Source of the DNA: Candidatus Woesearchaeota archaeon
GTDB lineage: Archaea; Nanobdellota; Nanobdellia; Woesearchaeales; SM23-78
Direction of reading: 5' to 3'
NCBI GenBank assembly: GCA_016933095.1
Contig: JAFGBP010000042.1
Coordinates: 19,691-83,690 of the forward strand
Length of the DNA stretch: 64,000 nt
Part shown: one piece after another, positions 22,392 to 63,250 of the stretch
Numbering within the stretch: the stretch's first letter is position 1
Layout of the letters: each line of letters begins with the position of its first letter
Program-made: the position numbers and the translations under genes
Notes under the pieces: model-generated
Told to the model about the DNA's origin: nothing
The model's database searches: none
Seen by the model: only the letters and a program-made list of their open reading frames with translations

Positions 22392-22488
22392 TGCAGCCGC
22401 CGGGATTCGAACCCGAGTCACAGGCTCTTTCCAGATCCAAGAAAGGACCCTTGGGAAGCCCAGATCATAGCCACTAGACCACGGCTGC
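22392..22488 (-). tRNA. tRNA-Gly (anticodon CCC inferred) with ~24-nt intron at canonical 37/38 position
   Basis: acceptor GCAGCCG/CGGCTGC, T arm TCGGG-TTCGAAT-CCCGG, anticodon loop TTCCCAA by linear numbering; 97 nt total. Confidence 0.6.
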
Positions 22489-24657: not shown

Positions 24658-26073
24658 CTATTTGTCCTTGATCTTCAAACCCAGCTCGTCCATCTGCATG
24701 GTGTGGACGTCCGAAGGCGCGTCGAGCATGAGGTCCCTTGCATCCTTGTTCTTAGGATACGCGATGACTTCCTTTATGCTCTTCTCTCCTGCCATGAGCA
24801 TTATCATCCTGTCAAGACCCAAGGCGATCCCGCCGTGCGGAGGAGCTCCGAACGTGAAGGCGTTCAGCAGGAACCCGAACTTCTTATCGGCCTCTGCCTC
24901 GTCGATCCCGAGGCACCTGAACATCTTGTCCTGAAGCTCGCGCTTGTGAATCCTTATGGAGCCTCCGCCGAGCTCTGTGCCGTTGAGCACGATGTCGTAG
25001 GCGTTGGCCCTGATGCCTGCCTTCTCCTTCTCGTCCTTTGCTTCCATGAGCGCAATGTCTTCCTTCTTAGGAGAAGTGAACGGGTGGTGCATGGCGTAGT
25101 ATCGCTTGTCATCATCGTTCCACTCGAGTAGCGGGAAGTCGACGACCCACTCGAACGCATATTCCTGAGGATCATTCTTGTCCTTGCGAATGTCAGGCTT
25201 GTCGCTCTTATACTTCTCAATAGCCTCTTTGTAAGTCAGCTTCTGGAATGGGATCTTGACATCGACATTCAAGACTTCCTTCCAGACGAACTGCAAGAGC
25301 CTCTCGATGACGTCCTGGATGTCCTGCTGCTCTATGAAGCTCATCTCCATGTCGAGCTGTGTGAACTCAGGCTGACGGTCGGCCCGCAGGTCCTCGTCCC
25401 TGAAACACTTAGCTATCTGGTAGTACTTGTCATAGCCTGCGACCATGAACAATTGCTTGAATATCTGGGGACTCTGGGGAAGCGCGTAGAACTGCTTCTT
25501 CGACACCCTGCTAGGTACAAGATAATCACGCGCGCCTTCTGGCGTAGATTTCCCAAGGACTGGAGTCTCGAGGTCAATGAACCCTTCCTTGTCGAGGAAT
25601 TTTCTTATGGCGATGCACACCTTGCTCCTCAGCATGAGGTTCTTCTGGAGCCTCTTCTTCCTGAGGTCAAGGAACCTGTACTTTAGCCGAACATCCTCAC
25701 TCGACTCGACTTTCTCGTCCAGCTCCAAGGGAAGGGCGTCTGCAGCGTTCAATATCTCTATCTCCTTTGCAGACAGCTCCACTTCTCCTGTCGCCAGCTC
25801 TTTCCTCACCTGGTTCTCTGGCCTCTTTTTTACCTCACCCACGACCCTGATCACGCTCTCTCTCCTGATCTCTCCGAATTCCTTCGTGAGAGCAGGGTTT
25901 ACGAACACTTGGGTCGATCCGTATCTGTCTCTTAGAATTATGAAGCTTAGCTTGCCTTGTATCCTCTGGGAGTCAACCCAGCCGCAAAGAGTGACTGTCT
26001 TTCCGGCGTCAGAGCCCCTGAGTTCTCCGCAAGTATGTGTCCTTAACATCAGGGCAAGATAGTAAGTGCCCAT
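24658..26073 (-). CDS. aspS: aspartyl-tRNA synthetase, bacterial type lacking the GAD insertion domain
   Basis: FRDEDLRADRQPEFTQLDMEMSF (motif 2 bacterial AspRS), GGGSIRIH, HGGIALGLDRMIMLM; DKPDIRK runs directly into WVVDFPLLE; 471 aa. Confidence 0.85.
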   Translation of the reverse strand: MGTYYLALMLRTHTCGELRGSDAGKTVTLCGWVDSQRIQGKLSFIILRDRYGSTQVFVNPALTKEFGEIRRESVIRVVGEVKKRPENQVRKELATGEVELSAKEIEILNAADALPLELDEKVESSEDVRLKYRFLDLRKKRLQKNLMLRSKVCIAIRKFLDKEGFIDLETPVLGKSTPEGARDYLVPSRVSKKQFYALPQSPQIFKQLFMVAGYDKYYQIAKCFRDEDLRADRQPEFTQLDMEMSFIEQQDIQDVIERLLQFVWKEVLNVDVKIPFQKLTYKEAIEKYKSDKPDIRKDKNDPQEYAFEWVVDFPLLEWNDDDKRYYAMHHPFTSPKKEDIALMEAKDEKEKAGIRANAYDIVLNGTELGGGSIRIHKRELQDKMFRCLGIDEAEADKKFGFLLNAFTFGAPPHGGIALGLDRMIMLMAGEKSIKEVIAYPKNKDARDLMLDAPSDVHTMQMDELGLKIKDK

Positions 26074-40317: not shown

Positions 40318-40665
40318 TTATCTGTGGAGGATGTCGCAGAAGCATTTCATCTTATTGTACATGCATACAGGATAGGGGCTGTGCAAGTCAGAAAGGAGAA
40401 TGCTGTTCAATACTGTAAGCTGCTCGCAGACCTTCTTTCCTTTTGATGTAATCTTATACTTCCCGGCAGTATTCTTTGTTAGCAATCCTATGTGCGTAAG
40501 CTCTTTCAGCCGAGAGGCGAGAAGGGTTGGGTTTATCATCCTTTTGGAATACAGGAGCAGTTCATTGTAGCTCCGATTTTTCTCATTTACAAGCTCTATC
40601 AAAACAAGAGTGTATTTTTTTCCTATGAGCTTGTAAAAGCTGTTCCACACACAATCTTGAACCAT
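40318..40665 (-). CDS. HxlR-type winged-helix transcriptional regulator
   Basis: 115 aa, Cys near N-term, pattern YKLIGKKYTLVLIELVNEKNRSYNELLLYSKRMINPTLLASRLKELTHIGLL; AT-rich gene. Confidence 0.65.
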   Translation of the reverse strand: MVQDCVWNSFYKLIGKKYTLVLIELVNEKNRSYNELLLYSKRMINPTLLASRLKELTHIGLLTKNTAGKYKITSKGKKVCEQLTVLNSILLSDLHSPYPVCMYNKMKCFCDILHR

Positions 40666-41128
40666 GTATATCTGCCTTTCTCTCTGCCGTTCTCCCTTTT
40701 CAAAAAACGTGGATTCGTATTAAAAAAAAAAAAAAAAGTTGCCGCCATTTGTAATGGTATCGTTTCGTGAGCGCTTGGTTTTCTCCAAACACAACTAACT
40801 ACAATATTGTGTAGTGCTACTTTAAAAACTTTTCTGCCTAGAAAAAGATAATAAGTGGATATATAAAGAGATTCATGTATTTAGTAATATAGTTATAGAT
40901 ATTAGATTCACAAAAGAGAGGTGCCCGCGCTTGTCGAAGAAAGAACAATGCAAAGCAATCATGGCAAAGCTTTTCGGTCCCGCTTCAGCCGCGTTAGTTG
41001 ATAGCATGCCAGAAGATGAATGCGTTGCCAAATGCAAAGCAAAAGTGACTGCTTTCTTAGGAGCCGACAAGGCAAAGGAATTTGACTCAATAAGCTAGGA
41101 AGATAGGGAAAAAAGAGGATTAAAAAAC

Positions 41129-42022
41129 ATGGATTCTGGTCTGGAAATTCTTAATCTCATTTGGGTGCAAGGGCAAACCTGTGGCGGAGATTCCATGGCA
41201 ATCATGGATACAGAGCGGCCTGACCTTCTTACATTCCTCTCACAAAACAAAATAAAGCTGCTTTATCACCCCATTCTCCACCCAGTCGACGGACCAGAGG
41301 CAAAGAAACTCTTTGAAGACTGCAAGGAAGGAAGAACAAAAGTAGACATTTTCATATTCGAAGGCACAATCCCGACAAAAGAAGGATGCGGAGACTGGCC
41401 TGGAACCGACATTAAGACCCTTGTAAAAGACCTTGCGTCCAAAGCAGGAATCACGATCGCGCTAGGAACCTGCGCGTCGTTCGGAGGAATCCCTTCGGCG
41501 CCTCCCAACGAGTCAGGATCAGTAGGACTCCAATTTCACGGCCACAAGAAAGGCGGATGGCTGGGAGAGAACTACATCTCAGAGCAAGGCGCTCCCGTCA
41601 TAAATATTCCTGGATGCCCTGCACACCCAGACTGGATCATAAGAACAATTCAAGCTTTTGTGTTGGAAAAGCCAGTCATTTTGGACGACTACAACAGGCC
41701 CAAAGACTTTTTCGAGGAGAAAGCCCACAGAGGATGCAAGCAATGCGAGTTTCACGAGCGAGGGCTGTGGGCAGAGGAGTTCACAGAGACAGGATGCCTG
41801 GCAGCAAAGCTTGGATGCAAGGGAAGGACCACGAACGCAGACTGCAACGTGAGGCTCTGGAACGGCGTTTCCTCCTGCACCAGGAGCGGAGCCCCGTGCA
41901 TAGGCTGCTGCGATCCAGGATTCCCCATCTCAATGACACCCTTCAACAAGGAAACCTTAAACCTGCCAGAGGACGTCAGATCCCTTGCGAATGAGAAGAA
42001 AAAGATCCTATACGGAGATTAA
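41129..42022 (+). CDS. [NiFe]-hydrogenase small subunit (three Fe-S clusters, no Tat signal); proximal-cluster CxxC replaced by C-G-G-D
   Basis: WVQGQTCGGDS, GTCASFGG, IPGCPAHP, H..C / C..C..C distal and CIGC medial cluster ligands all present. Confidence 0.9.
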   Translation: MDSGLEILNLIWVQGQTCGGDSMAIMDTERPDLLTFLSQNKIKLLYHPILHPVDGPEAKKLFEDCKEGRTKVDIFIFEGTIPTKEGCGDWPGTDIKTLVKDLASKAGITIALGTCASFGGIPSAPPNESGSVGLQFHGHKKGGWLGENYISEQGAPVINIPGCPAHPDWIIRTIQAFVLEKPVILDDYNRPKDFFEEKAHRGCKQCEFHERGLWAEEFTETGCLAAKLGCKGRTTNADCNVRLWNGVSSCTRSGAPCIGCCDPGFPISMTPFNKETLNLPEDVRSLANEKKKILYGD

Positions 42023-42040
42023 TATCATGGAGACGATGAG

Positions 42041-43570
42041 ATGGAAGAAGATATGACTGAAAAGGACATGACAAGCACCCCGACAAACTGGATTGAAGGA
42101 GACCTTACAGTTGAGATTACAGTCAACGCCCACAACAAGATAGCCGATGCAAAAGCCATGGGATTGATGTATAGGGGGCTGGAAAACATCTTCATCGGGC
42201 AAAGGCCGTTTGACGCCATGAGGATGAGCCAGAGGGCTGACGCCGCTTGCTCCACGGCGAATGGGACTGCCGGAGCCCTGGCCATTGAGAGGATGATGGG
42301 GTTCAAGCCTCCAAGGAATGGACAGCTCATCAGGGATATAGTGCTCGGGGCCAGCATTGCAGCAAACCACCTCACTCATTTTTATTTCACCTTGGGCCCC
42401 GGATTAGCAAGCCCTGAATACAAAAAGTTCAAGATGCATCACGAAATGCAAAAGAGATTTGACCCATCAAAAAGCGCGCTTCTCAAGGACGTGTTGAGAA
42501 AGGCAAGGATGCCGTTGCATAGGGCCATCGCGATTTTCGGCGGAAGATCATATCACCCCATGCACGCAGTGCCAGGAGGAGTATGCAGCATCCCAAAGTA
42601 CTCTGATCTGGCAGCGGCCAGTACAAGCGTCGCAGGCGCCAAGGAATTTTTGGAAGAGAACTTGCTTGGCGGGGTGAAGATGGAAGAATGGGCCAGGATA
42701 AGGACCGCCGACGAGCTCCTTGAACTACTAAAGGACAAGGCGTTTGCTGATTCAGACATCGGGCTTTTCATCAGGTATTCTCAGGAAATAGGACTTCACA
42801 AACTAGGCGAAGGAACCCACAACAATTTCTTGTCCTTCGGATTCGGAGAGAACAAGCATAATAACGGCATTGATAGCAGTCCCGATTCATGGCTCTTCAA
42901 ACCCGGATACGTGGAGAATGGCCAGTACCACGACCTAGACATCCAGCACATAACCGAAGATACTTCCCACTCTTATTATGAGACTGAAAGGGACTGGAGA
43001 AGCCCCCAGCACGGCATGACAAAGCCTATCCCAAGGAAAGAGGGAGCTTACAGCTGGGTCAAGTCTCCCAGATACTTTGGCAGAGCCTGCGAGGTAGGAC
43101 CGCTTGCAAGGCAGATAGTAAATGCAGACCTGCTCTGCATGGACTTAGTAAAGACCTTTGGGGTGAACACGTTCACAAGAACCCTGGCAAGGTTCCGCGA
43201 GATAACCCTTATAGTCCCAAAGCTCAAAGAGTGGATTGCAGAGATCGAATTGGAAAAGCCATTCTACAAACCATTCCCCGAAGTCAGCAACGGCTCCGGA
43301 TACGGCCTGGTGGAGTCCCCTAGAGGGGCTCTTGGCCACTGGATAAACATAAAGGAAGGCAAGTGCACAACATACCAGATGATCAGCCCTATCGACTGGA
43401 ACGCCTCGCCAATAGACTCTAACGGGGCTCACGGCGCCCTAGAGCAGGCCCTGATCGGCTGCAGGATAAAGGACAAAGACAGCCTCATTGAAGCCTCTCT
43501 TGTCGTGAAGGGCTTTGACTCCTGCATTGCCTGCTCAATACGGCCTGCCGCGCCAGGTGATGAGGAATAA
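42041..43570 (+). CDS. [NiFe]-hydrogenase large subunit-like protein; L1 motif RxCGxC degenerated to R-A-D-A-A-C; C-terminal DSCIACSIR retained
   Basis: colinear with HyaB-type large subunits (MYRGLE..GQRPFDA...QRADAACSTAN...LIRDIV...HFY); C-terminal two Cys present. Confidence 0.85.
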   Translation: MEEDMTEKDMTSTPTNWIEGDLTVEITVNAHNKIADAKAMGLMYRGLENIFIGQRPFDAMRMSQRADAACSTANGTAGALAIERMMGFKPPRNGQLIRDIVLGASIAANHLTHFYFTLGPGLASPEYKKFKMHHEMQKRFDPSKSALLKDVLRKARMPLHRAIAIFGGRSYHPMHAVPGGVCSIPKYSDLAAASTSVAGAKEFLEENLLGGVKMEEWARIRTADELLELLKDKAFADSDIGLFIRYSQEIGLHKLGEGTHNNFLSFGFGENKHNNGIDSSPDSWLFKPGYVENGQYHDLDIQHITEDTSHSYYETERDWRSPQHGMTKPIPRKEGAYSWVKSPRYFGRACEVGPLARQIVNADLLCMDLVKTFGVNTFTRTLARFREITLIVPKLKEWIAEIELEKPFYKPFPEVSNGSGYGLVESPRGALGHWINIKEGKCTTYQMISPIDWNASPIDSNGAHGALEQALIGCRIKDKDSLIEASLVVKGFDSCIACSIRPAAPGDEE

Positions 43571-43897: not shown

Positions 43898-45772
43898 ATG
43901 GCGGGATGGACATCTTTCATAACAGGACAGTTCCTAGATCCAAAACTGTTGCCCTACGCCGCGGGACTAGTGCTGATTTTCATCCTATTCTATTTCATCA
44001 AGCCAAAGCCCAAGCAGTTCGTCATGCCAACCCTAATGTTCCTGTTCAAGGATATGGGGCGCCACAGGACCGCCAACATCCTAAGAAAGCTCATCACGAA
44101 CATACTTTTCATAATGCAGCTCCTCATAATCGTCTTCATAGCCTTCTCGAGCGCCAAGCCATTCATAGACGTTAGCAAGGAAACCCTGTTCAAGAACACA
44201 GTCATAGTGCTTGACGCGAGCGCGAGCATGAAGGCTCCTTACCAAGGAGAGACCCGTTTTGAGGAAGCCGTAAGGATTGCGAAGGAGAACCTTGGAAGCA
44301 TCAACACCCTCATACTTGTCAAAAAGATCCCTGAAGTCTCCCTCGTAGACGAGACTGCCGGTAAGGTTAGAAGCATCATATCCGAAATGGAAGCCACAGA
44401 CTCACCCACCAACCTGTATGCTGCCATAAGCACTGCAGGAACTTATGCAAAGGCAGACTCAAGAATAGTAGTGATAAGCGACTTCATCGATACGGGTTCA
44501 GAAGCAGACCTGAACACCATCAAGAAGACCATAGAATCTCAGGGAATAAAAGTTGATTTCCTCAAGGTAAGGTCGCCTGTGCCGAACGTCGGGATCGTTG
44601 ACCTGACAGTGTCTGACTCCAAGACAACAGCGGTTGCCAAGAACTTCAACCCTGAAGAAGCAAGCGTGCGCCTGAAAATAAACGATTTGAGCGAGGAGAT
44701 GATCATTGCAGGCGGATCAAGGGAAATATTCTCCTTCACGACGCCTCCGTTGACAAGCAAACTAGAGCTCGAAGTCTTGTCCGGAAATGACGAGTTCAAG
44801 CTTGACAACCAGGCTTACATAAGCGCTCCTGGCGAGGACAAGAAGAAAGTCTTGTTCATAACAAACAACGCCGACTACAAGAAGACGTTCATATACAACG
44901 CCTTGGACGTCATGAAAGGAGTTGAGCTGACAGTGGCCATCCCTCCAAAAATACCTGCGCTTGGAGAATTTGACCTTTACTTCTTCAAGGATATAGACCC
45001 CAACCTCCTCTTGCCAGGGACCTACACTGGCATAAAGAAGGAAATTGAAACTAAGGGAAAGGCCGCCGTAGTCATGGCCCAGACAAACCTCCTCGCCATC
45101 AACTACCAAGGCATACTTCCGGTCGTGCCTTCGACTCTTGAAAAGGGCGATGCAATAAACATAATCACGACAGGAAACGAAGGCATCATGAGCGGACTCG
45201 AGCTAGGAGTCACCAAGAAATACTTTGGAGTCGAGAGCATAGAGGGAAGAACCCTTTCTGTTCTTGCAAGTAGCGAGTACAAGGTGCCCATCATAGCTTT
45301 CAACAAGATGGGGGAGGGAAAAGTCGTGTATTACGGGATACTTGACGAGGACGTGGAAGCCGAGACCTTCTTTGCGAAGAGTCCTGCATTCTTTGTCTTC
45401 TGGAAGAGGACTGTTGACTTCATCACCAACACTCCTTCAGTCAAGAACCTGAACTACAGGACAGGAAGCTATATCTCATTCCCAGAGGAGCAAACAATCC
45501 AGACTCCAAAGGGAAAGATAAAAACTAATGAGCTCGTGCTTGACCAGACAGGCCTCTATACCTTGCAGGACAGGACCATTGCGATCAACCTTGCCGACGA
45601 AAAAGAGTCTGACATCGGAAAAGAGGAGACAGAAGAGAGCAGGTCTTATGTAAAGGAAGGCGAGCGTTTTAAGGAGAAAGTCCCTTATGAGCTCACAGAT
45701 AACCTGGTGTACGCCGCGATTATCCTCCTGATCCTGGAACTCATTTACGTGAAGCTGAGAGGTGACTTTTGA
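43898..45772 (+). CDS. BatA-like membrane protein with vWA domain
   Basis: N-terminal TM helices, VLDASASM MIDAS motif. Confidence 0.7.
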   Translation: MAGWTSFITGQFLDPKLLPYAAGLVLIFILFYFIKPKPKQFVMPTLMFLFKDMGRHRTANILRKLITNILFIMQLLIIVFIAFSSAKPFIDVSKETLFKNTVIVLDASASMKAPYQGETRFEEAVRIAKENLGSINTLILVKKIPEVSLVDETAGKVRSIISEMEATDSPTNLYAAISTAGTYAKADSRIVVISDFIDTGSEADLNTIKKTIESQGIKVDFLKVRSPVPNVGIVDLTVSDSKTTAVAKNFNPEEASVRLKINDLSEEMIIAGGSREIFSFTTPPLTSKLELEVLSGNDEFKLDNQAYISAPGEDKKKVLFITNNADYKKTFIYNALDVMKGVELTVAIPPKIPALGEFDLYFFKDIDPNLLLPGTYTGIKKEIETKGKAAVVMAQTNLLAINYQGILPVVPSTLEKGDAINIITTGNEGIMSGLELGVTKKYFGVESIEGRTLSVLASSEYKVPIIAFNKMGEGKVVYYGILDEDVEAETFFAKSPAFFVFWKRTVDFITNTPSVKNLNYRTGSYISFPEEQTIQTPKGKIKTNELVLDQTGLYTLQDRTIAINLADEKESDIGKEETEESRSYVKEGERFKEKVPYELTDNLVYAAIILLILELIYVKLRGDF

Positions 45773-48222
45773 TGGGAATGCTCGGAATCACAAGCTTCCT
45801 CAATCCTGAAGCGTATTATCTTCTCATACCGGCGGCGGCCATACTCGCAGCTATAATCATGTTCAACTTCGTCTCTAACGAGATAGGCAACAGGAAAGAG
45901 AGGGGGAGCACAAGAATCATGATCTTGATATCAAAGATGATTATATTAACGCTCCTTATAACAGCCCTTGCACACCCTTACGGCGAAGTCACAATGACAA
46001 GCCAAGGGGATCCGAAGATCGTGCTTCTCGTCGATAACAGCAGCTCGATGAAGCTGCTGGAAACAAGGTTTGTCGAGAGCCTAAAGGCGAGATTCGAAGG
46101 AGAGTTTCCTGTCGTGTTGAAGTACATCGGGTCAGAGAAAGAGTCGGCCATAGGTGAGGAGATACTGAATTACCTAGAGAAGGACACGAACATCCTCCTC
46201 ATATCAGATGGGCAATCAAACTCAGGCGCCTCACTTGATGAAGTGGCCTTGCTTGCAGCCAACCTTAACAGCACCATAAGCGCTGTCAGCCTCTCTGAGA
46301 GGAACTCTGAAATAGGTGTCTACATCACGGGCTCTGACTCTAGCGTGAAGGGAGTGAACAATACTTACGTCGTCCACCTAATCAATCCAAAGGACGAGAA
46401 GGCAAACTTGAGGGTGCTCATAGACAACGAGGAGATAATTAACCAGGAAGTTAAGGGAGACTATTACTCGTTCCAGAAGAGCTTTGATGAAGGCACGCAC
46501 AAGATCGTCGCAGAGGTATCGTCGCTATCTGACTTCTTCCTTGAGAACAACCGGTTCTACAAGACCGTGAGCGTCGTGAAAAAGCCCCGAATTCTCCTAG
46601 TGCAGGACTCGTACGATCCTGTGGAGCAGATCTTCAACGGGCTATACGAAGTCACAAAATCAGACCGAATACCGGATAACTTGGACGAGTATTACGCCAT
46701 CATCCTGAATGATATGCCAGGCAGTGTTAAAGGGACTGAGAATCTTGCAGACTACCTCATAGACAAGGAAGGAGGGTATTATGGGAACGGGCTCTTTGTC
46801 ATCGGAGGATTTGACAGCTTCGACCGTGGAGGGTATAAGGGATCCGTCCTTGAGTCATACCTGCCAGTAACCGTGGGCAAGGCTGCAAAGAAGAGGGGAT
46901 CAAGCAACATCGCGATCGCAATTGACTTTTCAGGCACCACAGGCACCAGATGGTACTGCCCTAACCCTCCAGAAGTCGGGTGCAGGAAAGGAGAATGGGT
47001 TGAGGAAAAATCAGACGTCCAGGAAGTCAACAAGGCATTGGCATCAAGCATCATAAAGAGTCTTGGACCTGACAATACTGTGGGTGTCAGCATCTTCAGC
47101 AGCCAAAGCGGCACAGTGCAGGAACTAGCCCCGCTGTTCATGATCAAGGAGGAGCTGCTTGACAAGATCGCGAGGATTCAGCAGCCACCAGGACAGTCAT
47201 TCTTCAACATCGGACTGACAGGAGCATATCTCCTGCTGAAGGATCATGTTGGCAGCAACAACATCATACTTATAACCGACGGCCAGACAGGAAGTGATGA
47301 GATTAAGAAGACTACGATTGATACGGCAAAGACCCTAAGCGAGCGGGGCGTGAAGGTTTACGTGGTAGGCACTGGAAGGAGCGTGAACGATGCCTTCCTC
47401 AAGGACATCGCATACAACGGCCGAGGAGTATACTTCCCGGCTGACAAGTCCAATAATTTGAAGATACTCTTTGGCGAAGCCGCAGAGAGCAAGTTTGGGG
47501 AGGTATTTGACCTGTTCATCCTCAACCCTTATCACTTCATAACCCAAGGGCTTGCGCTTGACGCATCACTTTATGGCTTCAACCAGGTCATTCCGAAGAG
47601 CAACGCGATAACGCTTGTCACGACCCAGCACGGGGAGCCGGCGGTCACAGTCTGGAATTACGGCCTAGGACGTGTAGCCACCCTTAACGTGTTCAGCGGA
47701 AACAACAACCTAGGAGAGCTCATGAATAGCAGGAACTCAGTCCTCCTAACGAGAATCACTAACTGGGTCATAGGAGACCCGCAGAGAAAGGAGGATTATT
47801 ACGTCACAATATCAGACGCACGCGTGAACAAGCCTACCGATGTCATAATCAAGAGCGTCAAGTATCCTGATACTGAAGGAATCACCCTGACGAAGATTGG
47901 AGAGAACCAGTACAAGACAATAGTAACTCCTGAGGAAACTGGATTCAGCAGTATCATAGGAAAGGAATACGCTATTAACTATGAGGAAGAGTTCCAAAAC
48001 GTCGGAATGAACTCGAAAATGGAAGCAATAGTAGGCATGAGCGGCGGAAAGCTCTTTGAGCCTAAGGACGTGGATGAGATGATTGACTTTGTCAAGTCAG
48101 TCTCAAAGAAGACAAGACGGGAGAGGACCACGATCGTCTGGCCCTTCTTGATAGCAGCCGCCTGCGTATTCCTGATAGAATTGTTATATAGGAAGATCAG
48201 GGAGTATCGCCTAAACGGGTAA
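45769..48222 (+). CDS. membrane protein with two vWA-like domains and C-terminal TM anchor
   Basis: LLVDNSSSMK and IAIDFSGTTG MIDAS-like motifs; 4-nt overlap with upstream gene. Confidence 0.65.
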   Translation: MMGMLGITSFLNPEAYYLLIPAAAILAAIIMFNFVSNEIGNRKERGSTRIMILISKMIILTLLITALAHPYGEVTMTSQGDPKIVLLVDNSSSMKLLETRFVESLKARFEGEFPVVLKYIGSEKESAIGEEILNYLEKDTNILLISDGQSNSGASLDEVALLAANLNSTISAVSLSERNSEIGVYITGSDSSVKGVNNTYVVHLINPKDEKANLRVLIDNEEIINQEVKGDYYSFQKSFDEGTHKIVAEVSSLSDFFLENNRFYKTVSVVKKPRILLVQDSYDPVEQIFNGLYEVTKSDRIPDNLDEYYAIILNDMPGSVKGTENLADYLIDKEGGYYGNGLFVIGGFDSFDRGGYKGSVLESYLPVTVGKAAKKRGSSNIAIAIDFSGTTGTRWYCPNPPEVGCRKGEWVEEKSDVQEVNKALASSIIKSLGPDNTVGVSIFSSQSGTVQELAPLFMIKEELLDKIARIQQPPGQSFFNIGLTGAYLLLKDHVGSNNIILITDGQTGSDEIKKTTIDTAKTLSERGVKVYVVGTGRSVNDAFLKDIAYNGRGVYFPADKSNNLKILFGEAAESKFGEVFDLFILNPYHFITQGLALDASLYGFNQVIPKSNAITLVTTQHGEPAVTVWNYGLGRVATLNVFSGNNNLGELMNSRNSVLLTRITNWVIGDPQRKEDYYVTISDARVNKPTDVIIKSVKYPDTEGITLTKIGENQYKTIVTPEETGFSSIIGKEYAINYEEEFQNVGMNSKMEAIVGMSGGKLFEPKDVDEMIDFVKSVSKKTRRERTTIVWPFLIAAACVFLIELLYRKIREYRLNG

Positions 48223-48370
48223 TTGATGATAGAGTGGCAGGACGCATTAGCAAGGGCGAGGATGCAAGGAGAAGATTAGTGAGCAAATGCGCCAAACCAA
48301 TCGAAAATAGCCAAAAAATAAAAAGAGGCAAAGACAATCATAACGTGGAACGATGCGTGAAGGTGATTAG

Positions 48371-48883
48371 ATGAGCGAATTCATGGGAAAAAAGATAAAT
48401 TTCTTCCTTGTGATAATGATAATGCTCGTACTGTGCGGGATGGGCATGCTGAGCATTTACTACCAAGTCACTTTCAAGAACTTTGACAAGAGATTCCAGG
48501 ACCTGAACCAGGACTACGGCTCCTGCCAGCAAAACCTCACTTACGCAGTGAGCACGCTCCAGCAGACCATCAGGAACCTTAACAATACAGAGAGCGACAT
48601 AAGGAAGTATGACACTCTCTACGAGCAAAAGGCACAGGAACTCTCTGACATTGAAAGCACACTCAAGGAAACCCAGACTAAGCTGCAGAGCGAGACTATG
48701 TTCAAGGAGCAGTTCAAGAAGAAGGCTGAGAACTATGAAAAGCAGATCCTTGAACAGACAGAGGAGCTGGAGGAGATTCGAAAGCAGAACAACGCGCTGC
48801 AGTTCCAAGTAAACGTCCTTAACGAGAGGGTAGAATGCCTTGACGAGGAGATAGAGAGCTATGAATACACGTGCTATGAATGA
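48371..48883 (+). CDS. membrane-anchored coiled-coil protein
   Basis: N-terminal TM, long heptad region. Confidence 0.45.
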   Translation: MSEFMGKKINFFLVIMIMLVLCGMGMLSIYYQVTFKNFDKRFQDLNQDYGSCQQNLTYAVSTLQQTIRNLNNTESDIRKYDTLYEQKAQELSDIESTLKETQTKLQSETMFKEQFKKKAENYEKQILEQTEELEEIRKQNNALQFQVNVLNERVECLDEEIESYEYTCYE

Positions 48884-48960
48884 GTGAGGAAAAGACTGAC
48901 AAAGCACATCTTAGCCGTGACGATTGGATTATGGCTTTATCTTTCCGATAAAGGGAGAAA

Positions 48961-49764
48961 GTGGAAGAGATGAACAAGGTAAGGATATTATTCAACGAGG
49001 TGAAATTTGAGCTGCTAAAGGTAAGCCTGATGAACAGTTTCCTGGACGCGCTCATGATGTTCTTCCTCATATACTTCGTCATCTCACTCTTCAACGTGAA
49101 GCTTGAGTACGCCCTTACCATCCCTGGGATCATAAGCTTCATATTCTTCGTGGCGACGTTCATCAAAAGGACTCAGAACAGCAGGCTTAAGGATATGGAG
49201 AAGGCCAACCCGCAGCTGCGGGAGATCCTTAGGACGGCGCACGACAATCAGGAAGAGGACAACATCCTGGTCCAGGCACTTTTTAGGGACTTAAAGGAGA
49301 AGCTCAGGAACGCGTCGTCAGGAAACCTTATAGACTCGAAGAAGATAACGACGAGGGTGATAAGCGCGATCACGATCGTCTTCCTCATCTTGTTCCTATC
49401 AACCGTCACGATTAACATTCAAAAGATTGACATACCATTCGACAAGCTCAAATTCCTGACAGACTTAGACGCAAAGGAAAGGACTGAAGGCAACATCACA
49501 GAGCTGGTGTTCAACCAGACGGACGTGATATACGGTGATGCAAGCATCGCAAAGCTCGGGAATGACGTCGTGAACATCAAGGTGAACCCGACGATAGGCG
49601 AAATCGACCTTACAAAGACGAGCGAGGTAGAGGAAAAGGAGCTTGTAAGCGGGGCAATCCCCCAGGAGATCAGCATAAGCTCGGACGCTTACAGCAACCA
49701 GCAGATACTTGAAGAGGCAGAGGCTGCGGTGAACTACAGCCAGAGGATCAGCAAGATATCATGA
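48961..49764 (+). CDS. hypothetical membrane protein
   Basis: several TM segments; no domain recognised. Confidence 0.45.
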   Translation: MEEMNKVRILFNEVKFELLKVSLMNSFLDALMMFFLIYFVISLFNVKLEYALTIPGIISFIFFVATFIKRTQNSRLKDMEKANPQLREILRTAHDNQEEDNILVQALFRDLKEKLRNASSGNLIDSKKITTRVISAITIVFLILFLSTVTINIQKIDIPFDKLKFLTDLDAKERTEGNITELVFNQTDVIYGDASIAKLGNDVVNIKVNPTIGEIDLTKTSEVEEKELVSGAIPQEISISSDAYSNQQILEEAEAAVNYSQRISKIS

Positions 49765-49843
49765 TGACAGATGGAGGAATAGACTAATGCTATCAGCAGC
49801 AGGATCATGATGCAACAGATGATATTGGAGGAGTGATGTAAAA

Positions 49844-50806
49844 ATGGCAAATGCAAAAGACCTTGAAAGCGTAAAAAATATTGAGAAGCTCAAGGAGACG
49901 TTCAACAACATAAAAAGCGAGATAGGAAAGATTATCGTGGGGCAAGAAGAAGTGATAGAACAGATCCTGATAGCAATCCTGTGCGACTCAAACGCCTTGC
50001 TGGAAAGCTACCCTGGACTCGGAAAGACAACGCTTATCAAGACCATCAGCCAGATAATGGACTTGGGATTCAGCAGGATACAGAACACGCCTGACCTCAT
50101 GCCCTCAGACATTATAGGGACGTACCTTATCGATGAGGACAAAGGAAAGAAGGTGTTCAGGTTCCAGAAGGGGCCTATATTCGCGAACACCATCCTCGCA
50201 GACGAGATCAACAGGGCGACCCCGAAGACGCAGTCAGCCCTCCTAGAGGCCATGCAGGAGAAGCAGGTCACGGTCGGAAACCAGACTTTCGAGCTCGACA
50301 AGCCGTTCTTTGTCCTGGCAACTCAGAACCCGATAGACATGGAAGGGACATACCCGCTGCCCGAAGCACAGGTCGACAGGTTCCTCCTCAAGATCCTTGT
50401 AAATTATCCGACTTTCGAGGACGAGTTTGAGGTCATGAACAGGTTCACCAAGACGCACGTGAAGACAGAGGTGAAGACCCTTCTTAGCAAGGATTCTGTC
50501 CTGTTATTGCAGAACCTCACGAGGCAGGTCCCTATAGCTGATGACATCAAGAAGAAGGCCTTGAAGATCGTCCACAAGACCAGAAGCAACAAGGACCTCA
50601 TAGAGTACGGAGCTTCACCCAGGGCCAGCATCGGACTCATACTCGCCGCCAAGGCCAAGGCACTAGTCAACGGCCGGAAGTTCGTGAGCGAGAAGGACAT
50701 TGAAGAAATGGCATTCCCAGTCCTGCGTCACAGGCTAATCCTGAGCTTCAAGGCAGAGAGGGATGGAAAGACAGCGGACGACGTGATAAGGGAACTGCTG
50801 AAATAG
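49844..50806 (+). CDS. MoxR-family AAA+ ATPase
   Basis: ESYPGLGKTTLIKTIS, ILADEINRATPKTQSALLEAMQE, VLATQNP. Confidence 0.9.
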   Translation: MANAKDLESVKNIEKLKETFNNIKSEIGKIIVGQEEVIEQILIAILCDSNALLESYPGLGKTTLIKTISQIMDLGFSRIQNTPDLMPSDIIGTYLIDEDKGKKVFRFQKGPIFANTILADEINRATPKTQSALLEAMQEKQVTVGNQTFELDKPFFVLATQNPIDMEGTYPLPEAQVDRFLLKILVNYPTFEDEFEVMNRFTKTHVKTEVKTLLSKDSVLLLQNLTRQVPIADDIKKKALKIVHKTRSNKDLIEYGASPRASIGLILAAKAKALVNGRKFVSEKDIEEMAFPVLRHRLILSFKAERDGKTADDVIRELLK

Positions 50807-50914
50807 ACCGCGACCCAAACCTGCATCCAAGCAGCTCCACGTTCCGTCCCCATGGCAACTCGTCTGACGCAACCGAGTCTCGATACAGTCTGAACAGGCA
50901 ATGACAGACTTCAC

Positions 50915-51805
50915 TTGGTGGAGCTGCTTGCAAAGGTAAAGAAGAGAAGAAAAATGATCGACACCGCATTCCTAAGGCAGCTTGACCGCTTCCACCTAGT
51001 CCTCAAGAAGAGAGTGCTCTCCAACTATCAGGGAGAGAGGCAAAGCCACGCGCAAGGGTCAGGCCTGACGTTCGCAGACTACAAGGACTACGTCCCAGGA
51101 GACGACTTCAGGAACATCGACTGGAAGGTGTTCGCCAGGACCAACAAGCTCTACATCAAGAAGTACGAGGAGGAAAGGGACTTGTCAGTCCACATAATAG
51201 TGGATGCCAGCAGCAGCATGGACTACGGGAAGCAGATAAAGAAGTTCGAGTACGCGAGCATGATAGGCATAGGGTTCGCCTACATGGCGCTCAAGAACAA
51301 CGAGAAGTTCAACTTCTCGACTTTTGCAGACCAGCTCAACTACTTCAAAGCTAAGAAAGGAATGAACCAGCTTCTCGAGATCATAAAGAGGCTTGAGAAG
51401 CAGAAGATAACCGGGAACTCGAAGCTTGAAGGCGCGTTCGAGGAATACAAGAAGTTCATGCACAACAAGGGATTCGTCGTGGTGATATCAGACTTCCTAT
51501 ACGACCTCGAGGAGATAAAGAGCGTCATATCAAGGTTCACGAAACACGAGGTCGTGATAATCCAAGTACTAGACCCTGAGGAAAGGAAGCTTGCGCTCTA
51601 CGGCGACGTGATGCTCGAGGACAGCGAGATGCACACGAAGCTGCGCACGTTCATATCCAACAGGCTGCTCAAGAACTATAGGGAGAAGCTCGAAGGCCAC
51701 ATCTACTCGATAAAGGACGCGTGCGAGAAGATGGGAGCAGACTTCATAAGCATAACATCCGACAGGCCGATATTCGAAGCATTCTACGCTGCGCTGAAAG
51801 TATGA
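50915..51805 (+). CDS. DUF58 family protein (MoxR partner, vWA-like)
   Basis: QGSGLTFADYKDYVPGDDFRNIDWKVFART, IVDASSSM. Confidence 0.85.
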   Translation: MVELLAKVKKRRKMIDTAFLRQLDRFHLVLKKRVLSNYQGERQSHAQGSGLTFADYKDYVPGDDFRNIDWKVFARTNKLYIKKYEEERDLSVHIIVDASSSMDYGKQIKKFEYASMIGIGFAYMALKNNEKFNFSTFADQLNYFKAKKGMNQLLEIIKRLEKQKITGNSKLEGAFEEYKKFMHNKGFVVVISDFLYDLEEIKSVISRFTKHEVVIIQVLDPEERKLALYGDVMLEDSEMHTKLRTFISNRLLKNYREKLEGHIYSIKDACEKMGADFISITSDRPIFEAFYAALKV

Positions 51806-57184: not shown

Positions 57185-57964
57185 TCATTTAGAGGTCTCA
57201 TCAAAATCGTGCACAACCAATCCCTTGGATCCAATCTCCACAGGATGTATGTCCTCATCATTCTGCACATGCCTCATCTTCCTAACGAGCAGGCTTCTCG
57301 AGTACCGTCCACCCATAGACTCAAAACTCATATGGATTATTCCATCACATAAGAACTCTGATACCGAGTCTCTCGAGTATGCTTCTGATCCTTGCTCGAT
57401 CTCGGAGATTAGCATCGTCGTTATCTCGAGGTCTTGCAATTCACCTATTAGCATGTAGATGAATCTTTTGAGCAGGAAGTCTCCGCTGAGGGTCGGCGCG
57501 TATATGTTGTCTGGCATTATAAGGTCTCTGAGGAACAGGTCGTTTATCGCAGCGTATATGGGGGCGTTTATCGAGAGCGTGGAGAGCGAGTCTATGACTA
57601 GCCTTTTTATCTTGAAGTCTTTCACGTAGGATAGTATCTGGTCGAATGTGAGGTGGTCTATCTTCTTGACGGGTATGCATACGATGTGGAGCAGACCAGT
57701 AGCTTCCAGGGCCTTCAAGTCCCATCCGAACTGTGATGCTTGCCGGATTATGGAGTCCTTGTTCTGCTCAAAGCTCACGTACATGCTTGGTTCTTTGAAC
57801 TTTGAAGCGCCGTTTATTATGTACTGCAAGGAGAAGATGGTCTTTGCGGATCCTGGAGTTCCGCAGAGCAGTATGTTAGATCCGGCAGGGAATCCGCCTT
57901 GCACGAGCTTGTCGAATCCTGGGATTCCTGTCTTGCTCCTCTTAATCATGGTTGCTCTTTTCAT
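57185..57964 (-). CDS. KaiC-like (RecA-superfamily) single-domain ATPase
   Basis: GIPGFDKLVQGGFPAGSNILLCGTPGSAKT; start set to Met whose ATG overlaps the upstream stop (ATGA). Confidence 0.75.
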   Translation of the reverse strand: MKRATMIKRSKTGIPGFDKLVQGGFPAGSNILLCGTPGSAKTIFSLQYIINGASKFKEPSMYVSFEQNKDSIIRQASQFGWDLKALEATGLLHIVCIPVKKIDHLTFDQILSYVKDFKIKRLVIDSLSTLSINAPIYAAINDLFLRDLIMPDNIYAPTLSGDFLLKRFIYMLIGELQDLEITTMLISEIEQGSEAYSRDSVSEFLCDGIIHMSFESMGGRYSRSLLVRKMRHVQNDEDIHPVEIGSKGLVVHDFDETSK

Positions 57965-58683
57965 GGTCCCACCTGTATTCCTTCGTCTGTTATCTTGAAC
58001 CCGTGGATTCCTCCTTTGATGGAGGATCGCCTCATCTTCTGGACTTCCAGCGTCCTGAGGAAGGACTTTCCTATGGATCGTATGTCTAGTTTCACAACTC
58101 CGTCGCAAAGGTATTCTGATATTCCATCGCTCGTGACGGTGGGCTCGTCTCCAAGCCCTGAGACGTATATTGTGGTCGTGGGTATATCTTTTAGTATCGT
58201 GACGAGGTTGTAGACGAGCTGCTTTGGGGTGTTTGACACGCGGATCTTATCTTGGTAAAGGATGCTGAATTTCTTGTCTCCAGCCAGGAAGAATGGGCTC
58301 ATGGCCAGCAAGGTCAGGTTGTCAAGGGCCATCCTCTCTGCCTTGACCTTTCCTGCCTCCTCAAACACCTTGATGACGAAGTCTCTGTCAACGTCCTCTA
58401 TCTTCAGGGCGTATATCTTCATCAAGCCTTTTCTCATGTATTTCTTGACATCCCATCCTAGCTTTATGCATTGCTCTATGAGTTGCTCTTCTGTCTGGTC
58501 AAAACTGACAAAGAGCCCTGCCTCTCCCATCACGGCGCCTTTATAGATGTATTCCAGGGACATGATGGTCTTTCCGGACCCTGCTTTGCCGAAAATCATC
58601 ACGTTTGATCCTTTTATGAATCCTCCTCCTGTCAGTTCATCCAAACCCTCGATTCCTGAACTAATTCGTTTCATTAGCATCAC
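57961..58683 (-). CDS. KaiC-like single-domain ATPase
   Basis: GIEGLDELTGGGFIKGSNVMIFGKAGSGKT. Confidence 0.8.
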   Translation of the reverse strand: MMLMKRISSGIEGLDELTGGGFIKGSNVMIFGKAGSGKTIMSLEYIYKGAVMGEAGLFVSFDQTEEQLIEQCIKLGWDVKKYMRKGLMKIYALKIEDVDRDFVIKVFEEAGKVKAERMALDNLTLLAMSPFFLAGDKKFSILYQDKIRVSNTPKQLVYNLVTILKDIPTTTIYVSGLGDEPTVTSDGISEYLCDGVVKLDIRSIGKSFLRTLEVQKMRRSSIKGGIHGFKITDEGIQVGP

Positions 58684-59351: not shown

Positions 59352-60065
59352 CTAATGATCCATTAGTTTCAACAGCTTTATGCCTGATTCTGAGATGTCG
59401 AGGAGGAATTGCTCTTCGCTGTGCTTGCATCCTCTCATCTTTACGACCTGCAGAGTTTTTCTCAGCCTGTAGTTCTTCTCTATGTGATCCAGGTATATGA
59501 TGCCGTCGCATATGAACTCCTCCACTCCAAAGTTCGAGTAGCGCCTTGCGCCGGGCTCTACTTCTGAGACGAGGATCGCAGAGCACCCTTTGAAGAGGAG
59601 CAGGTTGCCAAGGTCAAAGAGGAACTTCCTCACGTGGTCAGGGTCGTCGAAGCGCTTGCATATGGCGCTTATTGAGTCGATGACCAGCCTCTTGGGCTTG
59701 TACCTGTCGAGCTGCTCGTATATAAAGTTCAGCACGTCTACTGACTTGAATACTGACTTGTCAGGATTGTCCGCCGGGATGGCGGTTCGCACGTCTACGA
59801 GCACTAGCTTGTTCTTGTTGATCCAATCCTCGTTAAAGAAGGAAAAGGACTTGAAGTTCTCAACCAGCTTTAGGTCTTGCTCGTTTAGCGACAGGAAGAG
59901 GGTTTTTTCGTCCATGTTGGAGCATGCGCCGCATAGGAACTGCATTGTGAGGGTGGTCTTTCCCGTCCCTGCGCTTCCTGCTAGGAGTATGATGTTCTTC
60001 TCAGGTATTCCTCCGTCAAGAATCTTGTCCAGATCTTCAATGTATGTCTTAATCTTTTCTACCAT
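59352..60065 (-). CDS. KaiC-like single-domain ATPase
   Basis: IEDLDKILDGGIPEKNIILLAGSAGTGKTT. Confidence 0.8.
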   Translation of the reverse strand: MVEKIKTYIEDLDKILDGGIPEKNIILLAGSAGTGKTTLTMQFLCGACSNMDEKTLFLSLNEQDLKLVENFKSFSFFNEDWINKNKLVLVDVRTAIPADNPDKSVFKSVDVLNFIYEQLDRYKPKRLVIDSISAICKRFDDPDHVRKFLFDLGNLLLFKGCSAILVSEVEPGARRYSNFGVEEFICDGIIYLDHIEKNYRLRKTLQVVKMRGCKHSEEQFLLDISESGIKLLKLMDH

Positions 60066-61342: not shown

Positions 61343-63250
61343 TTACAGTTTCTTGCCTGAGAAATCCCTCTTCATCACAAAAGTCTTCTTCTCCTGGCGA
61401 GAATTCCTAAACTTCCGGGCATAAATCTCCTCTGGAGCAGGCTTCTTCACAGGGAGAGTGATGAAGAAAGTCGTACCTACGTCAAGGGCGCTCTCAAGCC
61501 TGACAGTGCCTCCATGAGCCTCGACAATGTGCTTTAGGATAGAGAGGCCGAGGCCCGTGCTCTCAAACTCACCAGTCCTTACGTTCTTGTCGATCTGATA
61601 GAAGCGGTCAAACATGTGCTCCAAGTCATCCTCAGATATTCCCCGCGCATTATCCTCGACAGATATTAGTATATCACCTTCCTTCTTCAGGACGCAATTG
61701 ATGCGAATAACAAGTCTCCTTGTACTCTTGTATTTTATCGAGTTGCTAATAAGATTCTGGAAGATCTCCTTCAGGCGCATGCTATCGGCGTCGATGACAA
61801 GCTTCTTCGGACAGGTAACCTTCACCTTGCCCTTAACCTCGCGAAGCTTGGGAGAAAACTCCTTCACAGTTTCTCTGATGAGCTTCCCAATGTCGACTGG
61901 CTCCCAGAAAAGCTTGGCCTTGCCGGCCTCAAATCTTGAGAGCTCCAGAAGCTCGCATATTATGGAATTCAAGTAGTCTGTGCTTCGAAGGACGATCTCT
62001 AAAGTCTCCTTCTGCTTGGCGTTGAGCTTCCCGAACGACTCATCATAGAGAAGCTGGTTGTAAGCACGCACCGCCGTAAGCGGGGTCTTCAGCTCGTGAG
62101 AGATGTTTGAGAAAAGCACCTCTTTCAATACATCCGTCTCCAGAAGCTTGTTGTTTATCTCAAGCACCTCATTAGCCTGTTCAGCAATCGACTTTTGGGA
62201 CTCCTCAAGCATTGCGAGGAGTATGTTAATGTTATTGCACAGGCCGCAAATCTCATCTCGACCGCGCATCTTCAGCATCCCCTCATCGCACTCAGCGCGC
62301 TTTGACAAGTCCTGAGTCTGTATGACCTTGGAGAAGAAATCATAAAGACCTTTTAGACGGCGAAGGATCACTATGCGAATGAAAAAGTATATGGCAGTCA
62401 GCAATATCAGCAGTCCTGCAAGCATAAAGGCTGTAAACCATGCGAACATCTGGTTCTCGTGCGCGGTCAAATCCCTTGGACGGGTAATCTTGATTATGGC
62501 TCCAGGCCTGTCATAGAAGTCCTGGACTAGCAAGTAGCCGTAGAAAGATCCTTGATCGGAATAAGTAAAAACCTCATCTCCTATCCTAAGATTCTCCTTT
62601 GCCATCCAGAAGTCCTCTGCCATGGAGGGATCGTTAAAATTCCTGATATCAACGTCCAGAAGGAGCTGCATCTCAAGGTTAGAAATGTAATGGTGCAGGT
62701 ACTTAGCAAACAACAGCACTCCGTTCGCCGGGCCCGAATCATCGGACTTCAGGATGGGCCTGGCCACGAAGAGTATAGAGCTGTTCGCGCAGGTCAGGAG
62801 CCCTGATTGGATTTCTGCCTGGCTCCTGTCAAATCCTAATCGCAAGACCCTTTGGCCTCCAAATTCCTTTGCAAAGAGATTTTCGCAGGAATAGGAATCA
62901 TCAGCATACAGCTCTTGCACAATGTGCCCTGACTTATTGGCCAGGATGAACATGTCAATGTCCAGCAGCGCCAGGGTCTCGTCATTCAGGTTCGAGCTGA
63001 TATAATCCTGATTCTTATCTTCTACAAAATTGTATGAGTCATCCCATTGCGACCAGTCGGCAAGGCGGTAGTCGATGTTCTCGAGCATTATCTTCACCTG
63101 GTTAGAAGTTCGGATAAGGTCTCTGTTAAGGAAATCCTCTTCAAGGTTTGCAAAGGAGGACCTTATGAACAGGAAGTAAGCCAATCCGAGCAGCACGAAG
63201 CCTGTAAGCACTATCGACATGAAAACCAAAGTCTTAAGCCCGAGCTTCAT
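61343..63250 (-). CDS. sensor histidine kinase with two TM helices and extracytoplasmic sensor domain
   Basis: H box HELKTPLTAVRAY, G boxes DNARGISEDDLEHMFDRFYQ and GTGLGLSILKHIVEAHGG. Confidence 0.9.
   Translation of the reverse strand: MKLGLKTLVFMSIVLTGFVLLGLAYFLFIRSSFANLEEDFLNRDLIRTSNQVKIMLENIDYRLADWSQWDDSYNFVEDKNQDYISSNLNDETLALLDIDMFILANKSGHIVQELYADDSYSCENLFAKEFGGQRVLRLGFDRSQAEIQSGLLTCANSSILFVARPILKSDDSGPANGVLLFAKYLHHYISNLEMQLLLDVDIRNFNDPSMAEDFWMAKENLRIGDEVFTYSDQGSFYGYLLVQDFYDRPGAIIKITRPRDLTAHENQMFAWFTAFMLAGLLILLTAIYFFIRIVILRRLKGLYDFFSKVIQTQDLSKRAECDEGMLKMRGRDEICGLCNNINILLAMLEESQKSIAEQANEVLEINNKLLETDVLKEVLFSNISHELKTPLTAVRAYNQLLYDESFGKLNAKQKETLEIVLRSTDYLNSIICELLELSRFEAGKAKLFWEPVDIGKLIRETVKEFSPKLREVKGKVKVTCPKKLVIDADSMRLKEIFQNLISNSIKYKSTRRLVIRINCVLKKEGDILISVEDNARGISEDDLEHMFDRFYQIDKNVRTGEFESTGLGLSILKHIVEAHGGTVRLESALDVGTTFFITLPVKKPAPEEIYARKFRNSRQEKKTFVMKRDFSGKKL

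Follow-up and report, generated by a model that had tools for sequence, protein, structure and literature searches.

A woesearchaeal [NiFe]-hydrogenase gene pair with a degenerate large-subunit active site and an intact iron-sulphur subunit: a candidate pseudoenzyme

Introduction

What becomes of a [NiFe]-hydrogenase once its large subunit has lost a nickel-binding cysteine is the question raised by two adjacent genes in the genome of Candidatus Woesearchaeota archaeon (GCA_016933095.1). The pair lies in a stretch of 64,000 nt (contig JAFGBP010000042.1, positions 19,691 to 83,690, forward strand), referred to here as the window, from whose first letter all coordinates are counted. An initial annotation, made from the letters alone, had described an orphan hydrogenase with Cys-to-Asp substitutions at metal-ligand positions in both subunits, and had proposed either a divergent hydrogenase with altered nickel coordination or a sensor or non-catalytic derivative. 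Comparison with related proteins identifies the two genes as orthologues of a [NiFe]-hydrogenase conserved across a clade of DPANN archaea, a cytosolic enzyme of group-2-like type. The most probable reading, somewhat more likely than not, is that they encode a lineage-specific, hydrogenase-derived pseudoenzyme, non-catalytic and under partial selection, in which the iron-sulphur (Fe-S) small subunit would be functional and the large subunit would act as a structural partner lacking the standard cofactor. The features on which this reading is based are listed below, aligned where stated to Huc, the hydrogenase of Mycobacterium smegmatis.

41129..42022, +, [NiFe]-hydrogenase small subunit, cytosolic; 297 amino acids (aa); Pfam Oxidored_q6 and NiFe_hyd_SSU_C
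41180..41191, +, small-subunit proximal-cluster motif C18-G-G-D21; 35 clade relatives have CDGD, CDGN or CEGN at the aligned position, Huc has CSGN
42041..43570, +, [NiFe]-hydrogenase large subunit, degenerate active-site shell; 509 aa; Pfam NiFeSe_Hases, E 3e-72
42233..42262, +, large-subunit N-terminal Ni-binding motif RADAACSTAN, residues 65-74; alignment to Huc and the clade
43517..43570, +, large-subunit C-terminal motif DSCIACSIR (residues 493-501), 8-residue tail PAAPGDEE and stop; clade alignment

Family membership and the sequences compared

The pair combines a large subunit of the PF00374 fold with an Fe-S small subunit, as seen in the Pfam assignments, in matches to solved structures (E ~1e-70) and in an AlphaFold2 (AF2) model of the large subunit. 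The best solved structure is the corresponding Huc subunit in each case (small subunit, E 1.5e-70; large subunit, 7UUS/7UTD, E 3.5e-70), and for both proteins the PDB ranking continues from Huc to periplasmic [NiFeSe] and other group 1 enzymes. NCBIfam hydrogenase models all match both subunits, but at scores under their curated cut-offs, and the two proteins therefore appear to be divergent members of the family. The nearest sequence relatives belong to group 2; the named matches include HupV, HupU and small subunits from cyanobacteria and actinobacteria. The cytoplasmic location originally proposed from the missing twin-arginine (Tat) signal agrees with this grouping, Cys18 of the small subunit being preceded by 17 residues only, without an RR motif.

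Comparisons with the clade employed 37 relatives of the large subunit (50-62% identity to the window protein), placed in a 120-sequence MAFFT alignment, and 36 relatives of the small subunit (53-73% identity), 35 of which are readable at the proximal-cluster motif. No closer relative of the window large subunit was found in a 5.8-billion-cluster protein set, in GTDB representative genomes or in Joint Genome Institute (JGI) metagenomes.

The large-subunit metal site

Residues 65-74 of the large subunit, RADAACSTAN, align by HMMER to RICGICGGSH of Huc, such that Asp67 occupies the position of the first Ni-coordinating cysteine and Asn74 that of the motif histidine, as had been read initially; the second cysteine of the pair is kept as Cys70. 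A shifted alignment, which would have refuted the initial reading, was not found: the register is the same in the HMMER and the 120-sequence MAFFT alignments, and no CxxC occurs in any alternative reading frame of the motif DNA. All 37 relatives carry the motif R[SAT]CGVCP[VI][SP]H. The window protein is the sole exception among 38 clade sequences, and the substitution is thus more than chance. The changes comprise C67D, G68A, V69A, P71S, S73A and H74N, with seven of the ten motif residues differing from those of the closest relative, six of them at clade-invariant or near-invariant sites. A search for characterised close homologues with the same substitution returned none, the clade being otherwise canonical.

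At the C-terminus, the DxCxxC motif is retained as DSCIACSIR, in agreement with the first description, after which come only the residues PAAPGDEE and a stop. The corresponding clade motif, DPC[IL]SC[SA][IV]H, is present in 39/39 sequences with a visible C-terminus and is followed in most by a conserved tail of ~15 residues; the window protein shows P494S, S497A and H501R, and its eight-residue tail is unrelated to that of the clade. An apparent remnant of the ancestral tail, lying past the stop in another frame, was considered and rejected: the peptide “GIKAKGSASDRIRMAS” resembled the sister protein’s “AVGAKKARIRIDPGL”, but 701 of 1000 shuffles reached the same DNA alignment score.

Three of the four cysteine ligands found in catalytic [NiFe]-hydrogenases are therefore present, and Gly68, His74 and Pro494 have been replaced in addition to Cys67. 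Asp121 of the clade proteins, also lost here, presumably corresponds to the ‘canopy’ aspartate of E. coli Hyd-1, judging by motif spacing. Arg65 and His113 are among the catalytic-site residues that survive. The large-subunit histidine that touches the proximal cluster, His166 in Huc, is also kept, as His172. The first cysteine of the N-terminal pair is C241 in the numbering of E. coli HycE. All [NiFe]-hydrogenases hold their cofactor by four cysteines, and C241 of HycE is essential for interaction with HypC (PMC12134894).

Extent and clustering of the degeneration

The losses extend well beyond the cysteine motif. Each clade member was scored at the columns that do not vary among all the others. 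For the window large subunit, compared with 36 other members, there are 126 such columns, and it departs at 29 of them; the next worst member departs at 3/100. These departures are unevenly distributed (Fisher p = 1.4e-5), with 21/61 in residues 1-200, 0/36 in residues 201-400 and 8/29 in residues 401-509. The sites lost are as follows.

N-terminal strand before the IEG motif: I12, D13, R17, A23
Cys motif: C67, G68, V69, P71, H74
Residues 105-121: N105, V108, S109, M117, W118, D121
Residues 143-171: L143, H147, F170, P171
Residues 426-449: A426, I447, T449
C-terminal motif: R490, P494, S497, H501
Elsewhere: V43, V200, D403

Mean identity to the clade follows the same division. Across the three regions it is 0.53/0.59/0.54 for the window protein and 0.715/0.616/0.65 for canonical members, so that the N-terminal third, the best conserved part of the canonical proteins, is the worst conserved part here. 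Synonymous sites are saturated against the relatives (synonymous divergence, dS, undefined or above 1.5), and regional nonsynonymous divergence (dN) was used in its place. For the N-terminal third, dN is 0.305 in the window gene against 0.165-0.197 in canonical pairs, whereas in the middle third it shows no elevation (0.23 against 0.26-0.33). The large subunit is also ~8 identity points more divergent than the divergence of the small subunit predicts, a departure of about three standard deviations. Despite saturated synonymous sites relative to the sister sequence, both open reading frames (ORFs) are intact. The AF2 model of the large subunit is confident (predicted local distance difference test, pLDDT, 89.9; predicted template-modelling score, pTM, 0.90), as is that of the canonical relative P0002 (pLDDT 89.3). 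Model confidence was discarded as a probe of the active site, since it does not discriminate between the two: pLDDT is low at residues 14-20 and 496-509 in the window protein and at 10-15 and 484-503 in P0002.

The small subunit is conserved

The second substitution noted initially, in the small subunit, has a different standing. The proximal-cluster CxxC does read C18-G-G-D21, as first stated. However, the 35 readable clade relatives have CDGD (30), CDGN (4) or CEGN (1), CxGD or CxGN is found in many bacterial group-2 relatives, and Huc has CSGN; Asp21 is thus the ancestral and normal state of the DPANN clade. Treating the Cys-to-Asp changes of the two subunits as one phenomenon does not survive this comparison, as the change that sets this genome apart is confined to the large subunit. 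The precedent originally offered was FrhG, in which an aspartate is a ligand to the proximal [4Fe-4S] cluster. The likeness, a carboxylate in place of a cysteine at the proximal cluster, is sound, but FrhG matches weakly (E 5e-4) and the relevant precedent lies in group 2 (CxGD/N), not in group 3a.

The remaining cluster-binding motifs are intact, as had been reported, and comprise GTCASFGG, PGCPAHP, H200, C203, C223, C230, C239, C250, C257 and C260, all clade-invariant. The small subunit is 73% identical to its sister protein (P0122) and departs at 2/89 clade-invariant columns, a figure equalled by several relatives, with every Fe-S ligand kept; this conservation argues that selection still acts on the pair. 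The public annotation of this protein (P0121, 275 aa) begins at Met23 and so drops C18-G-G-D21 (window 41129..41194). Alignments to the relatives (294-298 aa) all begin at or before residue 3, in favour of the 297-aa form.

Phylogeny and gene order

In a neighbour-joining tree, the window large subunit branches as the sister of canonical P0002, deep within the clade, with a terminal branch of 0.389 against 0.142 for the sister. This position points to divergence in place, with no contribution from a foreign paralogue. Recombination with such a paralogue was rejected, as both divergent thirds remain nearest to P0002 (identity 0.58, against 0.53-0.54 on average to the clade). The case is not one of a divergent hydrogenase group, the window protein being a single sequence nested in an otherwise canonical clade. 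Of the alternatives offered initially, the non-catalytic derivative is the best supported.

The features surrounding the pair are as follows.

40318..40665, -, HxlR-like winged-helix regulator; Pfam HxlR, E 1.4e-4, 22.1 bits (cut-off 20.8)
40931..41098, +, small conserved protein of 54-55 aa containing three Cys; start codon TTG preceded by GAGGTG, no Pfam match
43898..51805, +, BatA/VWA, VWA, 170-aa, DUF7502, MoxR and DUF58 cluster downstream of the hydrogenase pair

The divergently transcribed HxlR-type regulator described initially is thus borne out by Pfam, and the stretch at 40-41 kb is indeed lower in GC (0.42). Homologues occupy the same position in the relatives’ loci L001, L002 and L006 (tblastn E 1e-10 to 1e-25). 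The 54-aa protein falls below the 60-aa threshold of the ORF list and was absent from the initial annotation. It is 67-81% identical to small ORFs of L001, L002, L004 and L006 by tblastn (83% to the L002 counterpart by blastp), and its family numbers 23 proteins, all on DPANN-type contigs. Members of this family adjoin HxlR-like and Cache/HAMP genes both where a hydrogenase is present (L001, L002, L004, L006) and where it is absent (L013, L014, L015). A role as a hydrogenase-specific accessory subunit was rejected on these grounds, and the 54-aa protein is linked to the locus without being specific to the hydrogenase.

Two arrangements are found among the relatives. In L002, the closest, the order is that of the window (HxlR-like gene, 54-aa ORF, small subunit, large subunit, BatA/VWA, VWA, 170-aa, DUF7502, MoxR and DUF58), and the neighbouring proteins of the two loci are collinear and 51-91% identical. 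The more distant L001, L004/L005 and L006 have the 54-aa ORF, small subunit and large subunit followed by HycI, HypC, HypD, HypE, HypA and HypB. Upstream of this set, L001 and L006 have an HxlR-like gene; NikR is nearby in L001, L004/L005 and L006, and the fetched flanks also contain HypF (L004 and L006) and CbiMNQO (L006).

Within the window, the reported lack of maturation genes holds: tblastn with DPANN HycI, HypA-F, NikR and CbiM/Q against the whole 64 kb gave only E > 0.01. Similarly, Pfam scans of the main ORFs (mostly of at least 110 aa) between ~21 and 61 kb found no endopeptidase, cytochrome b or diaphorase, as had been stated. The window contains no second large subunit, no Nuo or Mrp-like genes, no membrane subunits near the pair and no HucM-like partner. 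No kinase or transducer adjoins the pair, the nearest histidine kinase (61343..63250, CHASE4) lying 18 kb away on the opposite strand.

Comparison with known systems

Among characterised enzymes, Huc (group 2a; PDB 7UTD/7UUS; compare cyanobacterial HupSL) is the best match of known structure for both subunits. In common with the window pair it lacks a Tat signal and has a residue other than cysteine at the fourth proximal-cluster position (CSGN in Huc, CGGD here). In Huc, this residue goes together with three [3Fe-4S] clusters (PMC10017518). Huc differs in that its RICGICGGSH and DSCLVCTV motifs are complete and its [NiFe] site is normal, whereas the window large subunit is without the first cysteine; bacterial group-2 proteins in general are only ~32-39% identical to the window proteins. 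The other members of the DPANN clade share with the window the HxlR-like gene, the upstream 54-aa ORF and the small-subunit ligand set, but keep all four cysteines and the histidine and, in most cases, the tail of ~15 residues.

Large-subunit homologues that are not hydrogenases provide further comparisons. HupK/HoxV proteins, scaffolds in the maturation of O2-tolerant hydrogenases, retain only some of the Cys motifs and are non-catalytic (PMC3534401; PMC12134894). They are, however, extra paralogues found beside a functional large subunit and hyp genes, whilst the window protein stands in the true large-subunit position next to the small subunit. A HupK/HoxV-type scaffold role was accordingly rejected on gene context, as the protein is orthologous to the clade large subunits and the 64 kb contain neither hypC/hypD nor a second large subunit. 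NuoD/Nqo4 of complex I and Ehr provide precedents for a large-subunit fold that has lost the Ni-binding cysteines and persists as a functional subunit beside an Fe-S small-subunit homologue. HydDB excludes Nuo and Ehr as homologues that do not metabolise H2 (PMC5037454). These proteins differ in being derived from membrane-bound group 4 enzymes and in belonging to multi-subunit, ion-pumping complexes, and the NuoD and FpoD models match the window large subunit at residues 19-115 only, with E 1e-7 or worse, which sets it apart from them. The window pair is likewise unlike the group 2b sensors HupUV/HoxBC in that the first cysteine is lost and no histidine kinase is linked.

Incomplete cysteine sets are also found closer by. 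Ten other representatives, among the 119 nearest that cover the N-terminal motif, lack at least one Ni-binding cysteine (P0283, P0286, P0301, P0329, P0354, P0362, P0377, P0379, P0380 and P0383), all of them rare and with generic protein names or none. FGFCGGSH, in which Phe replaces the first Cys, is common to three of the ten, P0383 included. P0383 (L016 8001..11017, contig of 1.87 Mb) immediately precedes HypC-HypD and is next to CO-dehydrogenase genes; it has no small subunit and may be a HupK/HoxV-type scaffold. Large-subunit homologues with incomplete Cys sets thus recur, and the window protein is a lineage-specific case in the true large-subunit position.

A hydrogenase-derived pseudoenzyme and its alternatives

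The loss of the cysteine, the replacement of the motif around it and the losses in the second shell and the tail all contradict the idea of a still-canonical enzyme. From these, we infer that the large subunit has lost, in this lineage, the standard pocket for the NiFe(CN)2CO cofactor: the terminal Ni-ligand cysteine, which is the HypC-docking residue in E. coli HycE, is replaced by aspartate and the conserved C-terminal maturation tail is gone, with the small subunit and its ligands for three Fe-S clusters, and likewise the middle third of the large subunit, kept. Most probably a heterodimer would still form, with a working Fe-S subunit; the large subunit, no longer assembling the standard cofactor, would be retained as its structural partner, and H2 turnover would be lost or badly impaired.

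Several observations weigh against this interpretation. Three of the four cysteines stay (Cys70, Cys495 and Cys498), as do the catalytic residues Glu19 (IEG motif), Arg45-Gly-x-Glu48, Arg428-Gly429, His433 and Asp493, and aspartate can bind metals, such that an altered metal site is possible. The small-subunit branch is also long (0.25 against 0.092 for its sister), both subunits having terminal branches ~2.7 times those of the sister, which leaves room for some relaxation across the whole enzyme or for a lineage that evolves fast. The variant comes from a single metagenome-assembled genome, with no independent recovery, and the negative result for hyp genes covers 64 kb, so that these genes may lie elsewhere in the genome. 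Finally, the ‘orphan’ status emphasised at first is no mark of a defect. The canonical sister locus L002 is also without adjacent hyp genes, yet in P0002 both the tail and the motifs are fully canonical. The hyp genes were therefore separated from the pair before the active site was lost, and this separation does not explain the loss.

The most serious alternative, although an unlikely one, is that the gene pair is simply decaying, the two genes being unitary pseudogenes that have yet to acquire a stop or frameshift and have no remaining function. The many invariant large-subunit residues that are gone, the lost maturation tail, the absence of hyp genes from the 64 kb and the long branches of both subunits are what such a process would leave; degenerate large-subunit homologues are, taken together, not rare (10/119 representatives), and DPANN genomes are generally reduced. 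Neutral loss should, however, strike conserved sites alike, and uniform decay is contradicted by the untouched middle third of the large subunit (0/36), by the small subunit (2/89, with all Fe-S ligands kept), by two intact ORFs and by a dN against the sister (0.18-0.31) far under the saturated dS. Complete loss of function would need to be very recent at most. Improbable, and distinctly more so than decay, is that the pair still works as a hydrogenase, or catalyses other small-molecule chemistry, at a remodelled metal site where the carboxylate of Asp67 stands in for the cysteine thiolate as a Ni ligand. The cysteines and catalytic residues that remain (Cys70, Cys495, Cys498, Glu19, Arg45-Gly-x-Glu48, Arg428 and His433) speak for such a site, as do the competence of aspartate as a metal ligand, the intact electron relay of the small subunit and the selection that seems to act on the pair. 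Nevertheless, this is no lone Cys-to-Asp swap: ~20 further invariant residues around the N- and C-terminal motifs have changed, Asp121 among them, the HypC-docking cysteine of HycE and a cleavable tail are missing, no maturation genes lie nearby, and no relative shares the state, which leaves no sign of a stable, selected new site. Slightly more doubtful again is the specific proposal of a large-subunit metal centre bound by Asp67, Cys70, Cys495 and Cys498, in place of the canonical four-thiolate site, that performs H2 or other small-molecule redox chemistry, possibly without Hyp and endopeptidase maturation; if correct, this would be the first case in nature of a [NiFe]-hydrogenase-type enzyme in which a carboxylate is a Ni ligand.

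A role as a sensor of H2 or redox state, comparable to group 2b HupUV/HoxBC and signalling through the HxlR-like regulator or chemotaxis-type transducers, is very unlikely. It would account for the conservation at the locus of the HxlR-like regulator and the small Cys protein, for the che and Cache/HAMP genes beside the relatives’ loci and for the short large-subunit C-terminus, as sensory hydrogenases lack the C-terminal tail. To our knowledge, however, the known sensory enzymes keep all four cysteines and need Hyp maturation, and the group-2b-like matches obtained here read CGICSVSQ and DPCMVCTVH, ending at CTVH. Canonical clade members have the tail and HycI, as catalytic enzymes do, the regulator and small protein also occur without a hydrogenase, and the window offers no adjoining kinase or transducer. 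An artefact of sequencing or metagenome assembly is the least credible explanation of all. There is one source sequence, and its NCBI small-subunit gene model is truncated, but codons differ by the dozen, all in frame and many of them at two nucleotides, across two regions of an otherwise collinear gene. The large subunit still groups with its sister, and the neighbouring genes are 65-91% identical to those of the sister contig and follow its order, a pattern that errors of this kind do not produce.

If the pair is indeed retained under selection, it would represent a natural heterodimeric [NiFe]-hydrogenase of the group-1/2 type that is becoming a pseudoenzyme with its Fe-S subunit intact, a small-scale parallel to the origin of complex I subunits from group 4 hydrogenases. 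It is also a naturally occurring exchange of Cys for Asp at the residue responsible for HypC docking and Ni binding, and as such is open to biochemical testing. In the meantime, annotation pipelines and metabolic reconstructions of DPANN archaea will count the large-subunit gene as a hydrogenase, though H2 turnover is improbable.

The wider DPANN clade

The clade to which the pair belongs may deserve more attention than its member in the window, being cytosolic, group-2-like and often found beside chemotaxis genes. It forms one cluster at 50% identity, with the next representative 38% identical, and three of the four clade loci examined carry their own HycI-HypCDEAB set. The studies of Woesearchaeota and DPANN hydrogenases consulted here describe group 3b [NiFe] with [FeFe] enzymes, or [FeFe] with hybrid enzymes, and leave this type unmentioned. 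The clade (P0002-P0038, P0122-P0157) may thus be an undescribed [NiFe] subgroup.

In the relatives, the hydrogenase operon adjoins CheA, CheW, CheB, CheY, CheC, CheD or Cache/HAMP genes (L001 1..8194, L004 1..8369, L002 1..1161). Either a conserved gene order or a functional tie of H2 metabolism to taxis could lie behind this adjacency.

Other features of the window

Three further features of the window, distant from the hydrogenase pair, were recorded. Two overlapping ORFs on the reverse strand (57185..58108 and 57961..58683) both match the KaiC-type ATPase domain and could be parts of one KaiC-like two-domain gene that is split or frameshifted; another KaiC-like gene lies at 59352..60065, with a DUF835 gene between it and the overlapping ORFs. 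Two paralogues of class II aminoacyl-tRNA synthetases of the Asp/Lys/Asn type (5154..6446, +, and 24658..26073, -) occur within 20 kb of each other. A 97-nt tRNA gene (22392..22488, -), detected by Rfam at 42.9 bits and missed by ARAGORN, is in keeping with an archaeal origin and probably contains an intron, such introns being common in archaea.

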